DNA from: Acutalibacteraceae bacterium
GTDB taxonomy: Bacteria; Bacillota; Clostridia; Oscillospirales; Acutalibacteraceae
Direction: 5' to 3'
Length of the DNA stretch: 64,000 bases
NCBI GenBank assembly: GCA_045646305.1
Contig: JAZRKK010000065.1
Coordinates: 11,660-75,659, forward strand
Of this stretch, positions 49,524 through 53,940 are shown piece by piece. Positions within the stretch are counted from its first letter, which is position 1; each line of letters begins with the position of its first letter. Position numbers and translations under genes: made by a program. Below the pieces are notes generated by a model that did no database searches, was not told the DNA's origin, and saw nothing but the letters and a program-made list of their open reading frames with translations.

Positions 49524-50323
49524 CCAAAAAATATTCGACACACCTCTTTTCGCTTTGTGCGTTATTCGTGTTAGGGAACAGTATTATTTCATCCTCTGTT
49601 TATAATTTAAGCATTCTTGGACTATTTGTTTCGTTTGGTATTTCTTTTTTATTATTGGTTTTATCTTATTTAGTTTTCAAATTTTTTAAAAAGCAAAAAA
49701 TTATATTTCAAATTTTTCTATTTACGCTTTGCGCAACGGCAATTTGGGGCGCTGTATCTGCCTTTGCTGAGTATGTTGTATTTCTAAATTCAAATCAAAT
49801 GCCGCTTACAGGTATATATCTTTTATCGGTTGTGTTGATTGGCGTTGTAATTTTTATGTGCACTTGTAGTATATCTTCCATTTATAAATACTGTCTTTTT
49901 TCGGCTGTTATTTGCGGTTTGGTTATTATCGTTTGTTTTATAGGCGGTGTTAAAAACTATGATTTTTCAGTGATAAAAACACCCTTCCAAAAGCACACTT
50001 TAGCGCTAACCGACTTTTTGCCCATAATCATTTTGCCTATATTTCCCAAATTCAAATCACAAAGTTTTAAAGGTGTTTTCTTAGGAACATTATCCGCCTT
50101 TTCGGCAATTACCGTCTGCTTTTTTCAAACGCTTTTAACATTAGGCAGCGTAAAAAATGTAGATTACCCTTATTTAAAAGCTGTTAGCGTTATATCGTCA
50201 GGCAGTCTTTTTACTCGGCTTGATGGACTTGTGTATTTTTTGTTTTTTGTGACATCGGTCGTAAAAATGGCGGTATGTATAAAAGCGATTATTTTAACAA
50301 CCAAATATTTAAGTTCAAAATAA
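49520..50323 (+). CDS. GerAB-like germination permease subunit (short)
   Basis: 267 aa, polytopic, in the third position of a gerA-type operon. Shorter than typical B subunits. Confidence 0.6.
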   Translation: MTKKYSTHLFSLCALFVLGNSIISSSVYNLSILGLFVSFGISFLLLVLSYLVFKFFKKQKIIFQIFLFTLCATAIWGAVSAFAEYVVFLNSNQMPLTGIYLLSVVLIGVVIFMCTCSISSIYKYCLFSAVICGLVIIVCFIGGVKNYDFSVIKTPFQKHTLALTDFLPIIILPIFPKFKSQSFKGVFLGTLSAFSAITVCFFQTLLTLGSVKNVDYPYLKAVSVISSGSLFTRLDGLVYFLFFVTSVVKMAVCIKAIILTTKYLSSK

Positions 50324-50684
50324 AAGCGCCTCAAAGTGGGAGACACATCGTAAAGAAGTTTCTCCCAATTCTCTTTTTATATAAAAATTGACACTTTCAA
50401 CTTGAAAGTGTCATAATGGGTTACATAATTTGAAATAATACACATCTCAACGATACATACAATTAGTGTTATTGTGAGACCGGTCTCACAGTGATATTTT
50501 TCCTTGCGACAAAGTGATATTAAAACCTTTGGTTTTAGTTATATTATATTCGCCCTACAGCTCGCGAAGCGAATATCACTTGAACTTTAGTTCAAATATC
50601 ACTGCGAAGCAATATAACTCGCCTTTGGCGAATATAACTGAGGCACACTTCCATACGGAGTGTGCCTCTTATTGAGGCGCTTTT
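50322..50684. repeat. Inverted-repeat-bounded non-coding unit with a 9-mer repeat array (candidate sRNA or MITE-like element)
   Basis: 13-bp perfect terminal inverted repeats AAAAGCGCCTCAA (50322-50334) and TTGAGGCGCTTTT (50672-50684). AGTGATATT/AGTTATATT occurs at 50490, 50513 and 50537. AATATCACT/AATATAACT occurs at 50572, 50595, 50611 and 50631. There are short hairpins between the repeats, a terminal hairpin at 50640-50668, and no ORF of 60 aa or more. Confidence 0.5.
50388..50417 (+). promoter_or_regulatory. Strong sigma-A-like promoter with an embedded 12+12-bp palindrome
   Basis: TTGACA (50388-50393), an 18-nt spacer, then the extended -10 TGTCATAAT (50409-50417). TGACACTTTCAA-c-TTGAAAGTGTCA (50389-50413) is a perfect inverted repeat. 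No ORF lies downstream. Confidence 0.55.
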
Positions 50685-51560: not shown

Positions 51561-53940
51561 TTAGAACTGATATAATTTCTACTATAGGAAGAGAATATCT
51601 TACAACTAACATAGAAAATGATGAGTTTAGTTACCCCAAAGCATATAAGGAGGCGGGGCTAATCTTTTCTCCTATAAAAAATTCTTCTGGTAGAAAATTC
51701 GAAAAATTAGATATTCGTTTTGTAAAAGATGGAATAACTGTTCTTGTGGAAACCAAACAACAATTTGTTGACCTTGACGAAGAACAGCTATCTGCTTATG
51801 TTGAATATGAAAAAGCGCTTACTGGAAATAAGATAATAGCAATATTGGCTAACACTGAAAACGATAGCATTAAAGTTTGGCGTGGTGTTGTTTCTAACAA
51901 TACTATTCTTGAAAAAGAAAATTCTTTGCGTTCGATGAACGAATATATAGATTTCTATACTTCAAAAATTAATGACAAAGAAAAAATTATGTCAAATACA
52001 TATAAGCTAAACAAAATGTTGCACAAGCACGGAATTGCTGAAGAATTGAGAAGCCAATTTGTAGGCACCTGTTTGTTAAGTTTAAAAAATGGTCTCGATT
52101 ATAATATCCCCTCATTATCAGCTTCCCAAATAAGAGCTCGGATTAAAGACACTTTAGAAGATTTATTAACCAACGATATTAACAAGGCAGGAAAATTATC
52201 GTTATTAGAAAAAAATGTTCTTCTCTCGCAAGATATAAGGGCATTACCTGTTGAGAGTTTTCGTGAAATATTAAAATATATAGATAAAAATATTTTGCCA
52301 TTTATAAATGATAAAAGCACTTCAGGACAAGACTTATTGAACCTTTTCTTTGTAACATTCAATAAATATGTTAAAACCAATAAAAATCTAGCTTTTACAC
52401 CGGATCACATCACTAGTTTTATGGCAAAAATCACTGGAATAAATAAGCACTCTGTTATTCTCGATCCTTGTTGTGGAAGCGGGTCTTTTTTGGTGAGAGC
52501 TATGACACAAGCATTAGAGGATTGTTCGACGGAAAAAGAACAAGATAAAATTAAAAAGCAAAATATTTTTGGTATCGAATACGATGAAAATATCTATGGC
52601 CTGTCTACAACTAATATGCTGATACATTCTGACGGAAATTCCAACATAGTCCAAGGCAGTTGCTTTGATTTTGAAGAATGGATACAGGCAGCAAAGCCAA
52701 ACGTAATTTTAATGAATCCTCCATACAATGCACAAAGAAAACACATGCCAAAAGCTTATACAAAAAGTTGGAGCAGGGACAAGAAAGAGGATCCGTCAAA
52801 AGGTCTATATTTTGTTAAATATATAGCTGATACACTGAATAAAGTAGATCTTCAAGCAACTCTCGCTGTCTTACTGCCTGTTGCTTGTGCCATTGGCACT
52901 AGCAAAGTAATAGAAAAACTAAAAATCGAAATTCTAAAAGAAAATACTTTAGACGCTGTTTTTACTCTTCCAGGTGATGTGTTCCATCCTGCTGCTGCGC
53001 CTTCAGCGTGTTGCATGGTCTTCAAGATAGGAAAAAGCACACTGACATCAGCAATCCTGCTACGTTTTTTGGGTACTATAAAAACGATGGCTTCAAGAAA
53101 AAGAAAAATTTAGGAAGGGTAGAACAAACAGACGTTAATGGTTATAGTCTTTGGAATCAAATAGAAAAAAATTGGATTGAGCTTTATCGAGATAGAAAAT
53201 CAGTAGATGGTCTCTCTGCAACACAAAGAGTAACCGGTAAAGATGAGTGGCTATGCGAAGCATATATGAAAACTGATTACTCAACCTTAACCGAAGGTTT
53301 ATTTCAGCAGACAATTAATAACTATATGTCGTATTTAATTAAATTTGGAAAATACCCAAACGCTACTTTATCACCTTCTTCTGCCCAGAAATTAAACATT
53401 GTTGATTGGAAAGAATTTTTTGTTTTGAAAACAGATAATACCCCTGGACTATTTTTGATTGAAAGTTGTAAATGTGGATGTGCAGGTGACCTTGACGACG
53501 GAGAGGATTTAAATTATATAGGCGCAAAAAAATCAGATAATGGTGTTATGAAAAAAGTAGCAAAAGATGAGAATTTATTATCTACGGGCAATGGTATTTT
53601 ATTTATATGCGATGGTGAAGGTTCCGTTGGATACACTAATTATATGGATGAAGATTTTATAGGTTCCACAACTACCTCTATAGGCTACAATAAAAACTTA
53701 AATGTGTATAATGCCTTATTTATGGTAACTGTTTTAGATCAAGAAAAATTTAAATATTCTTATGGTCGAAAATATCGTGCAAACTTAGAAAAAATAACAA
53801 TTAAATTACCAATCAAATATAATAACGATAAAACGCCGTATATTGATGATACACATGAATATTCTAATGATGGTTATGTCCCTGATTGGGATTATATGGA
53901 GAAATATATAAAATCATTACCTTATGGAGATAGGATCTAA
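51557..53940 (+). pseudogene. Type IIG-like fused endonuclease / N6-adenine methyltransferase / specificity protein, split by a frameshift
   Basis: Track ORFs 51557-53113 and 53008-53940 overlap in different frames. There is an N-terminal PD-ExK-like motif (KLDIRF...VLVETKQ), motif I DPCCGSGSF, and motif IV NPPY (52715-52726). The methyltransferase C-terminal motif continues across the shift: ..CCMVFKIGK | KHTDISNPATFFGYYKNDGF. Adding one A to the A5 run at 53042-53046 restores a single ORF of about 795 aa. Confidence 0.7.

Follow-up and report, generated by a model that had tools for sequence, protein, structure and literature searches.

A multi-copy non-coding element with a two-armed Gut-1 array and a MOBV-like promoter region, lying in a split terminator beside spoVT

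The locus between the germination genes and spoVT

The unit described here (50322-50684) lies in a 64,000-nucleotide stretch of the genome of an Acutalibacteraceae bacterium, referred to below as the window. Upstream of the unit are a GerA gene, a gene whose product has a GerAC N-terminal domain and a gene for a 267-aa membrane protein without a Pfam match, while its downstream neighbour is spoVT in convergent orientation, so that the placement between a convergent germination gene and spoVT given in a preliminary description of this DNA agrees with the gene context. The same description listed six sequence features and reported no ORF of 60 aa or more. The longest ORFs of the unit are indeed 58 and 53 aa, and all six features, including the small hairpins between the word copies, were found at their coordinates and are far from chance; only the palindrome GTGAGACCGGTCTCAC, present as described, had been given the wrong length of 16 bp, as it is really 9+9 nt at 50473-50490. 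The features, together with those added by the present analysis, are as follows.

50322-50334 and 50672-50684, no strand assigned: 13-nt inverted repeats, the left arm AAAAGCGCCTCAA and the right arm TTGAGGCGCTTTT of a host bidirectional terminator, outside the element and different at every copy
50335-50671, plus strand: inserted 'type-A' element of 337 bp, with 22 full copies, most of them between split terminator arms
50338-50379, plus strand: left end hairpin LH (50338-50366) and T-run, conserved, with compensatory changes among copies
50388-50428, plus strand: putative orphan MOBV-type oriT overlapping a sigma-70-type promoter, from a promoter scan and from the core seen upstream of Mob_Pre genes
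50388-50393: -35 box TTGACA, followed by an 18-nt spacer and TG
50412-50417: -10 box CATAAT, giving the promoter 11 of 12 consensus matches in total
50389-50400 and 50402-50413: perfect 12+12 palindrome, forming the oriT inverted repeat (50389-50413)
50404-50428: conserved oriT core GAAAGTGTCATAGTGGGTTACATAC
50429-50472, plus strand: leader from the oriT core to the array, from the alignment of copies and comparison with relaxase-linked loci
50473-50545, plus strand: open arm of the array, with an 18-bp palindromic hairpin, two copies of AGTGATATT and one of AGTTATATT, separated by hairpins
50490 and 50513 (starts), plus strand: word AGTGATATT
50537 (start), plus strand: word AGTTATATT
50544-50639, minus strand: closed arm of the array, with two copies of AATATCACT and two of AATATAACT as read on the plus strand, separated by hairpins
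50572, 50595, 50611 and 50631 (starts): reverse-complement words
50544-50554 and 50627-50637: covarying 10-11-bp helix bounding the closed arm
50640-50668, plus strand: right end hairpin RH, related to LH in inverted orientation and matching it at about 20 of 29 nt, with the terminal stem at 50640-50649 and 50659-50668

The 64-kb window contains 11 occurrences of the word pattern AGTKATATT where 2.04 are expected, a count reached in none of 100 shuffles, and seven of the 11 are packed into 150 bp. The sequence also folds far better than chance, with z-scores of -7.4 as RNA and -9.9 as DNA. A role of GTGATAT as a genome-wide signal of the Chi type was considered and set aside, as only 41 of its 602 occurrences (382 expected) fall in arrays.

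An insert at the tip of host terminators

The 13-bp repeats had been taken for the terminal repeats of the unit. Comparison of the 22 full type-A copies, which are spread over the genus and further families of the order, revealed that the repeats differ in sequence at every copy, while the insert between them stays 80-88% identical; because the flanks differ in this way, the repeats are not element ends and are instead the arms of a host bidirectional terminator, split at its tip by the 337-bp insert (approximately 50335-50671). Sixteen of the 22 copies are flanked by copy-specific arms of the form A-run/stem...stem/T-run with at least 9 complementary bases, a degree of complementarity seen in just 4.3% of 462 mismatched pairs of flanks. 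Convergent ORFs lie on either side of 14 of the 15 copies that have ORFs on both sides, with gaps of mostly 10-25 nt.

The orthologous site is empty in other species. In the species G008 the spoVT terminator is unsplit (AAAAGCGCCC-aata-GGGCGCTTT), and the argH terminator is likewise unsplit both there (AAAAGCCACTC-gttaca-GAGTGGCTTTT) and in the genome studied here (AAAACCCACTG-aatc-CAGTGGGTTTT), compared to a further genome, G003, in which it is split by 355 bp. None of 80 spoVT loci of relatives has an array at the spoVT terminator, a single one having an array elsewhere in the locus; a strain-level empty site was not found by exact-protein look-ups of the flanking genes or by a metagenome pattern scan. 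Terminator sites, the absence of a target duplication and an empty orthologous site together are what is expected of a hairpin-targeting MITE or stem-loop insertion, and the MITE-like insertion suggested by the preliminary description is borne out by a non-coding unit present in many copies. The search for other copies and homologues found around 12 in the 1.73-Mb genome itself, several of them at contig ends, and more in relatives and in other families; Gut-1 matches, discussed below, are present in 30 of 41 relatives, with a maximum of 38 per genome. Copies in other species are 83-86% identical to the window copy, while spoVT is only 69-77% identical, and the left module is found in 19 of 201 genomes of the order, distributed patchily over about 10 families at 72-96% identity. 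At the left end, LH and its T-run resemble a terminator for the upstream gene, and direct reading of the sequence suggests that the LH stem, GACAC(T)TC/GAAGTGTC, resembles an oriT hairpin.

No transposase or other enzyme linked to the element was found. This genome (G000) encodes no reverse transcriptase, Y1 transposase or IS1182 transposase, with no match to PF13751 or PF05598, the IS1182 transposase domains. Across the order, 30 IS1182 loci have no ends in common with the element, only one of 18 element-positive genomes has an IS1182 gene, and no autonomous partner combining matching ends with an IS1182 transposase came to light. An IS110 transposase gene is present on contig C29, where no element copy was found, and IS110 was rejected as the enzyme. 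As for the origin of the whole element, there was no plasmid match, and a phage source was discounted, the one match, to phage contig MT835815, being weak.

A putative transfer-origin core and the Gut-1 array

The promoter with a built-in palindrome had been correctly recognised, although this reading was incomplete, as sequence comparison identifies the region as homologous to the oriT/promoter region upstream of Mob_Pre (MOBV) relaxase genes. At four loci (L276, L281, L292 and L300) a Mob_Pre gene follows the core GAAAGTGTCATAGTGGGTTACATAC at a distance of 52-200 nt, and alignment reveals an invariant 28-nt core common to the element, to plasmid sites and to sites upstream of Mob_Pre genes; the core pattern read backwards, used as a control, gave no matches. 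Like the relaxase-linked sites, the element has an inverted repeat immediately 5' of the shared nick region. By analogy with pMV158, whose sites are AAGtaTAGTGTG and TGTG/TTATAC (PMC5863519), the predicted nick falls between G50420 and T50421. An adjacent cognate relaxase gene was not found, the unit having no ORF of 60 aa or more, and Mob_Pre is represented in this genome by one weak ORF on another contig. What looks like a perfect promoter is a relic of a relaxase gene; against a reading of the element as DNA, the promoter is conserved and is directed toward the array in both of two unrelated carrier types. The window copy itself shows signs of decay: its oriT core, elsewhere invariant, has two substitutions, one of its hairpins is broken and its Gut-1 score is sub-threshold. 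In the leader, the second inverted repeat of the oriT lacks its right arm.

In the preliminary description the unit was matched to no RNA family. A cmscan search of Rfam matched Gut-1 (RF01706) on the closed arm with 44.3 bits (minus strand, 50568-50640, E = 9e-7) and on the open arm with 23 bits (plus strand, 50489-50554). The window copy is thereby below the gathering threshold of the family, 50 bits, which sister copies in the same genome exceed (54.1 bits on C17, 54.1 on C70 and 52.0 on C25), and the cmscan alignment contains the four conserved heptamers and three variable-sequence hairpins of the family. These results place the array within the Gut-1 architecture and identify the 9-mer blocks as a divergent Gut-1 copy with two arms. 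Matches to other Rfam families, RsaE (E = 0.56) and microRNA models, were at chance level and were dismissed.

Every array found consists of two inverted arrays of one 7-nt word, with the words pointing toward the centre. Pairing between the left and right 9-mer blocks, as proposed previously, did not hold up, as all three full-word nested pairs of the window copy mismatch at the variable position; the conserved pairings are instead local hairpins and one 10-bp long-range helix. The suggested analysis of covariation was carried out, and the hairpins covary; 27 of 27 arrays are concordant in the closing helix, with only two main states and hence few independent events.

Elsewhere in this genome a PF05635 gene (C65:4656-5015, within a cassette at C65:4656-5230) has the same word directly next to its promoter, and across 49 genes the PF05635 subfamily tracks the flanking word. 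The closest solved structure of a PF05635 protein, 2RLD, was deposited with five chains. Strict dependence of the element on its cognate PF05635 protein is weakened by element-bearing genomes that are 95-99% complete and lack a close homologue, and several nearly complete genomes with GTGATAT arrays, e.g. G073 (96% complete), have no close homologue of the cognate protein. The window copy contains no PF05635 gene with arrays of that gene's word before or around it, and its words are spaced by about 23 bp versus 7 bp in related PF05635 cassettes; these spacings agree only if the spacers loop out.

Folded DNA, RNA and comparison with known elements

The question of whether the array is read as DNA or as RNA can be addressed from the pairs and loops of its hairpins. 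Over 631 pairs from 100 unique spacers, the stems are 90% Watson–Crick, and G·T pairs number 9-13 (1.4-2.1%), about as rare as A·C, versus 60 G·U among 843 pairs (7.1%) in tRNAs of the same genome. Among 117 unique loops of 3-4 nt, 75 are G..A loops as read on the ATWTCAC strand versus none as read on its complement, 106 are closed by a C-G pair and around half are triloops, so that the hairpin loops take the form C-GNA-G or C-GNNA-G on one strand only; 20 of 48 G..A tetraloops are GNYA and not GNRA. These stable loops form on the opposite strand to that of the Rfam model and are mirrored between the two arms, meaning that a single transcript would comprise one 'good' arm and one complementary arm. 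From these statistics the hairpins look like DNA hairpins and the array appears to behave more like folded DNA than a small RNA, and we infer that the element works as DNA and not as an sRNA gene.

A genuine sRNA gene of about 250 nt, an extended Gut-1 RNA transcribed from its own promoter from near 50424 to the terminal hairpin, whose RNA would be the functional product, for example as a sponge displaying single-stranded heptamers, is the strongest of the alternatives, although we regard it as unlikely; the mobile-element features would then merely explain how the gene spreads. It would account for a promoter with an extended -10 and near-consensus boxes that is conserved across copies, for the order of promoter, open arm, closed arm and GC-rich hairpin that is repeated among type-A copies and, by inference, among orphan copies next to tRNAs, for the compensatory changes in the hairpins and the RNA folding score, and for arrays persisting in genomes without the cognate protein, and Gut-1 is listed as an sRNA in Rfam (RF01706; Weinberg et al. 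2010, PMC2864571). Against it stand the scarcity of G·U pairs compared to tRNAs, the mirrored loops on the strand opposite to the Rfam model, the triloops and GNYA tetraloops, the poor U-run after the terminal hairpin, and a promoter that is explained by the lost relaxase gene.

What is observed at the locus is a multi-copy element in split terminators. The unit as a whole is probably a gene-less, non-autonomous mobile DNA element that entered, at the tip of its hairpin, the bidirectional terminator serving both the gerA-type operon and spoVT. It would consist of three modules: the hairpin ends LH and RH; a minimal MOBV-type oriT together with the usual promoter of a Mob_Pre relaxase gene, the gene itself being absent; and the two-armed Gut-1 array of 7-nt words GTGATAT/ATATCAC with spacer hairpins of arbitrary sequence. 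A relaxase acting in trans may nick the putative oriT and allow the element to be carried between cells, and the element may enter hairpin loops that are present only in single-stranded DNA. In such DNA the array would fold, its hairpins looping out to set the words side by side as a possible docking platform for a ring-shaped protein of the PF05635 (Avd/23S-IVS) family.

A further step, put forward as speculative and rather doubtful, is that Gut-1 is a single-stranded-DNA device and not an sRNA. Nicking at the orphan oriT would make the array the first DNA to be exposed or transferred as a single strand, the C-GNA-G mini-hairpins would gather the words into a ring-binding platform for Avd-like PF05635 pentamers or into a single-strand origin, and integration into terminator loops could proceed by the same single-strand chemistry, with no need for a classical transposase. 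Retrohoming of DGRs requires a hairpin with a GRNA loop (PMC3240598), and, if true, this proposal would link 23S rRNA intervening sequences, dispersed heptamer repeats and the DGR retrohoming hairpin.

It is improbable that the element is instead a domesticated structural element kept by the host in the manner of REP/BIME or Correia sequences, as a hairpin stack that replaces the terminator, insulates convergent genes and protects mRNA 3' ends. The position of 14 of 15 copies between convergent genes, replacing the terminator loop, the T-run after LH, six predicted terminator-like sites on both strands (0.4 expected) and conservation exceeding that of neighbouring genes would all fit, but the patchy occurrence across families noted above points to recent horizontal spread, simple unsplit terminators serve equally well in sister species, and the conserved single-stranded words and oriT core are left unexplained. 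A duplex DNA operator array, whose 9-mers are bound by a factor such as SpoVT to regulate the neighbours, would suit seven copies of one word in two orientations at 17-24 bp spacing beside spoVT, but is very improbable, as 79 of 80 spoVT loci of relatives have no such array, which makes the SpoVT link raised earlier unlikely, the same arrays lie at a dozen unrelated loci of this genome, compensatory changes in the spacer hairpins are not expected of sites read as duplex, and only looped-out spacers would reconcile the spacing with that of the PF05635 cassettes.

Gut-1 has been an orphan "RNA" since 2010, and this locus puts it inside a composite mobile element, with the Rfam model covering half of a mirrored unit and the pairing and loop statistics favouring folded DNA of the opposite strand. 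Gut-1 here accompanies a putative transfer origin of the relaxase type and inserts into the loops of terminator hairpins, which bears on the role of Gut-1, on the binding target of the very large PF05635 (23S-IVS protein/Avd-like) family and on how a gene-less element can spread between families of gut Clostridia. In annotation, the 'terminal repeats' should be read as arms of the host terminator and the 'perfect promoter' as what remains of a relaxase gene.

Bacterial MITEs such as Correia, BOX, RUP and ERIC are short, multi-copy, intergenic, modular and hairpin-rich, and may carry promoters. The present element differs from these in targeting hairpin apices, in carrying a putative oriT and in having no short target duplication. 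IS1272/TnSha1 of the IS1182 family in staphylococci (Furi et al. 2016, PMC4923244) and IS elements targeting REP palindromes (PMC1525189) resemble it in inserting into terminator or extragenic hairpins with no sequence specificity and no target duplication; those elements carry their own transposase gene and remove a part of the stem, whereas the element in the window has replaced no more than the loop and left the two arms in place.

The PF05635 heptamer cassettes and ORF-bearing 23S rRNA IVS (Coxiella; Warrier et al. 2016, PMC4990558) share with the element inverted arrays of a 7-nt word, linked to a gene for a PF05635 four-helix-bundle protein, and a location inside the loop of a pre-existing hairpin. 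The window copy differs in being gene-less and in having hairpins between its words; the gene-bearing cassette found in this genome has its two arms together on the same side of the gene. The MOBV oriT/Pmob, with MobM of pMV158 as prototype (PMC5863519), also has an inverted repeat directly 5' of a conserved nick region, ATAGTGGG/TTACATAC in the element compared to TAGTGTG/TTATAC in pMV158, and overlaps a -35/extended -10 promoter, and Mob_Pre genes of gut Clostridia and of plasmids are preceded by an identical core; in the element the relaxase gene downstream and the right arm of the second repeat are absent, and the nicking site is putative. Gut-1 as described from uncultured human-gut bacteria (PMC2864571) has, like the element, four heptamer words and three short variable hairpins, with the word GUGAAAU in place of GUGAUAU. 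Unlike the Gut-1 model, the real unit comprises two mirrored arrays and a long-range helix, is multi-copy and mobile, and has pair and loop statistics that point to DNA, on the strand opposite to the Rfam model.

A gene-less element in many copies

What occupies window positions 50322-50684 is a composite mobile element, gene-less and slightly decayed in this copy, lodged in the loop of a terminator. Every feature listed in the preliminary description was confirmed at this site, which is bordered upstream by the final gene of a gerA-type operon and downstream by spoVT, convergent with it; the upstream genes encode GerA, a protein with a GerAC N-terminal domain and a 267-aa membrane protein with no Pfam match. 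The unit is non-coding as claimed, with no ORF of at least 60 aa, and 11 occurrences of the word AGTKATATT in the 64-kb window compare with 2.04 expected, 7 of them lying within 150 bp. Counting related copies in the window's own genome (G000; 1.73 Mb assembly, 85% complete, 36% G+C) gives about 12, and several of them are at contig ends. Related copies sort into carrier types, the window copy being type A.

Parts of a type A copy, left to right, with window coordinates (forward strand); the insert proper is 337 bp, about 50335-50671
50338-50366: left end hairpin (LH), stem GACAC.TC / GAAGTGTC, then a T-run
50389-50413: palindrome (inverted repeat stem GACACTTTC / GAAAGTGTC) set within TTGACA-18-TGnCATAGT
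Next: leader, starting GGGTTACATAC
Next: open arm, in which spacer hairpins separate GTGATAT words
Next: closed arm, in which spacer hairpins separate words reading ATATCAC or ATATAAC
50640-50668: right end hairpin (RH), stem CACACTTCC / GGAGTGTG

The words point toward the centre in all arrays found. A 10-bp helix, T[A/T]TATTCGCC...GGCGAATA[T/A]A, encloses the closed arm; its variable position is concordant in 27/27 unique arrays, and one double compensation is seen in addition. Two loci, G000 C12:18318-18590 and L087, are type A deletion derivatives that keep LH, the probable oriT (described below) and RH and have mostly or wholly lost the array. Another conserved carrier, type B, is found in front of the array at G000 C56:16700-16860, C46:7720-7850 and C26 (reverse) ~52560-52700, and at L237:190-320 (G073); it comprises a start AAGGGTTTTAGGT(T/G)CTCCTAACAAG, a nested hairpin, CTTGTTACGGTATAAGAC and its own terminator (GGATGTGTAGAA.TTCT.C.CATCCGTTTTT). 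No Rfam family matches type B at E <= 0.01; it could be a further small RNA or a leader.

Insertion into terminators

The 13-bp repeats had been taken for the unit's own termini, but in 22 full type A copies the insert is conserved and the flanks differ each time, which identifies them as host terminator arms. These flanks consist of an A-run and stem at left and a stem and T-run at right, and are complementary over at least 9 bases in 16/22 copies, compared with 4.3% of 462 mismatched left/right pairs. Convergent ORFs flank 14 of the 15 copies having ORFs on both sides, mostly with gaps of 10-25 nt, and complete copies from other families within the order show the same flank arrangement. The argH terminator provides an orthologous filled/empty site pair: it is intact in G000 (AAAACCCACTG-aatc-CAGTGGGTTTT) and in one relative, G008 (AAAAGCCACTC-gttaca-GAGTGGCTTTT), and split in another, G003 (AAAAAGCCACTGT-[355 bp]-ACAGTGGCTTTTT). 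Likewise, the spoVT terminator is uninterrupted in G008 (AAAAGCGCCC-aata-GGGCGCTTT) and reads AAAAGCGCCTCAA-[337 bp]-TTGAGGCGCTTTT in the window; the supposed terminal repeats are a split host terminator. None of 80 spoVT loci of relatives has an array at this terminator, and no target duplication was seen at insert sites. At L159:1735-1830, from another Acutalibacteraceae MAG, the spoVT terminator is intact, and directly after it comes an array of a different word, GTTATGA, with spacer hairpins.

The proposal of a MITE-like insertion is borne out by multiple copies, patchy occurrence across families and the argH site. Of 201 genomes of the order, 19 have the left module, at 72-96% identity and dispersed among about 10 families, a pattern that fits horizontal spread; copies from other species are 83-86% identical to the window copy, versus 69-77% for spoVT.

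A probable orphaned transfer origin

The promoter with its palindrome is present as described, and a further reading can be added: it is probably an orphaned origin of transfer (oriT), with a core common to Mob_Pre-linked sites. A short-query search of plasmids with window 50402-50438 matched sites of two kinds. One is in a resistance segment of IncHI2 plasmids, 59 nt upstream of the gene for a "plasmid recombination protein" that matches Mob_Pre (4.6e-35); the other is in Kurthia plasmids. The core GAAAGTGTCATAGTGGGTTACATAC..TTT is invariant in the alignment with these sites, while the hairpins 5' of it differ in sequence. It occurs in 22/201 genomes of the order (reversed-pattern control, 0), lying 52-200 nt upstream of Mob_Pre genes at 3 loci. 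The core, which has 2 substitutions in the window copy, resembles the origin of pMV158. In that plasmid MobM, which contacts AAGtaTAGTGTG, cuts at TGTG/TTATAC, and the origin overlaps with the mob promoter (PMC5863519). By analogy, a nick is predicted between G50420 and T50421, which would leave the array directly 3' of it on the strand transferred. The right arm of the second inverted repeat, kept in relaxase-linked loci, is absent from type A copies.

In the Kurthia gibsonii plasmid pND2a (L275, 17471-23502), the core and a catB-type acetyltransferase gene are ~200 bp apart, and that gene adjoins an IS1182-family transposase gene. The sole candidate relaxase of the G000 assembly is a 564-aa ORF with a weak Mob_Pre match (36 bits; C50:34993-35304), and its contig showed no copy of the oriT core.

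The Gut-1 array, its possible partner and known systems

The preliminary description knew of no matching RNA family, but Rfam Gut-1 (RF01706) matches both blocks below its gathering score of 50 bits: the right block on the minus strand (44.3 bits) and the left on the plus strand (23 bits). Three copies in G000 exceed the threshold, and matches, mostly as convergent pairs, occur in 30/41 relatives (Acutalibacteraceae MAGs of gut samples), with a maximum of 38 per genome. Weinberg et al. described Gut-1, from human-gut sequences, as no more than a probable non-coding RNA (PMC2864571). Pair and loop statistics indirectly favour single-stranded DNA instead. Across 100 unique spacers of unrelated sequence, 90% of 631 hairpin pairs are Watson-Crick and G·T pairs number 9 or 13 by strand, as rare as A·C; G·U accounts for 60/843 pairs in the tRNAs of G000. 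Among 117 unique hairpins with 3-4-nt loops, about half of them triloops, 106 have a C-G closing pair; a G..A loop is present in 75 when the ATWTCAC strand is read and in 0 on the other, and GNYA makes up 20/48 G..A tetraloops. The classic case of a very stable mini-hairpin in DNA is C-GNA-G. The loop bias is mirrored between the arms, so each DNA strand has one well-formed arm, which would not hold for a single transcript, and the Rfam model is drawn on the weaker-loop strand.

One of two PF05635 genes in G000 (C65:4656-5015; closest solved relative 2RLD, deposited with five chains) has a GTGATAT two-armed array, as in the unit, abutting its TTGAAA-17-TATAAT promoter. Genomes of the genus have 0-9 such genes, each flanked by its own 7-8-nt word, tandem or hairpin-interrupted, and subfamily tracks word. 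Since the word periods, 7 bp in tandem and about 23 bp in interrupted arrays, are equivalent only with hairpins looped out, recognition of the words as single strand is suggested. Strict dependence on the protein is disfavoured because several element-bearing genomes, 95-99% complete, lack any close homologue of the cognate one. The array and PF05635 gene cassette at L075 (C65:4300-5300) lies between direct duplicates of ~40 bp comprising a terminator hairpin and flank (CTGTTATTAAAAACAAAAAGAGTCCCGAAGGACTCTTT), a junction type unlike the split-loop insertions. At L111, L101/L102 and L234, PF05635 genes armed with tandem heptamers are wedged among housekeeping genes (named by eye from translated ends), one between apparent ATP synthase gamma and beta genes and the others between the end of a topoisomerase-subunit-like gene and whichever gene follows it.

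As to what could move the element, G000 has no RT, Y1 transposase or IS1182 transposase, and its one IS110 gene is on C29, where no element copy was found. The LH, oriT and RH stems are related, so the element's ends may be hairpins of relaxase type, a hint that movement could be of a rolling-circle kind. For insertion into terminator hairpins without duplication, the published precedent is IS1272/TnSha1, an IS1182-family element (PMC4923244); no ends are shared between the element and IS1182 loci of the order, and IS1182 presence there does not track the element. In the Coxiella 23S IVS, a PF05635-family gene and tandem heptamers lie within a stem inside an rRNA hairpin (PMC4990558), and DGRs, with the related protein Avd, require a target hairpin of any stem sequence with a GRNA loop (PMC3240598). 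Neither a DNA-level reading of Gut-1 nor the combination of parts seen here was found in the searchable literature; individually, these parts, namely the Gut-1 motif, a MOBV oriT and hairpin-targeting insertion, are all of known kinds.
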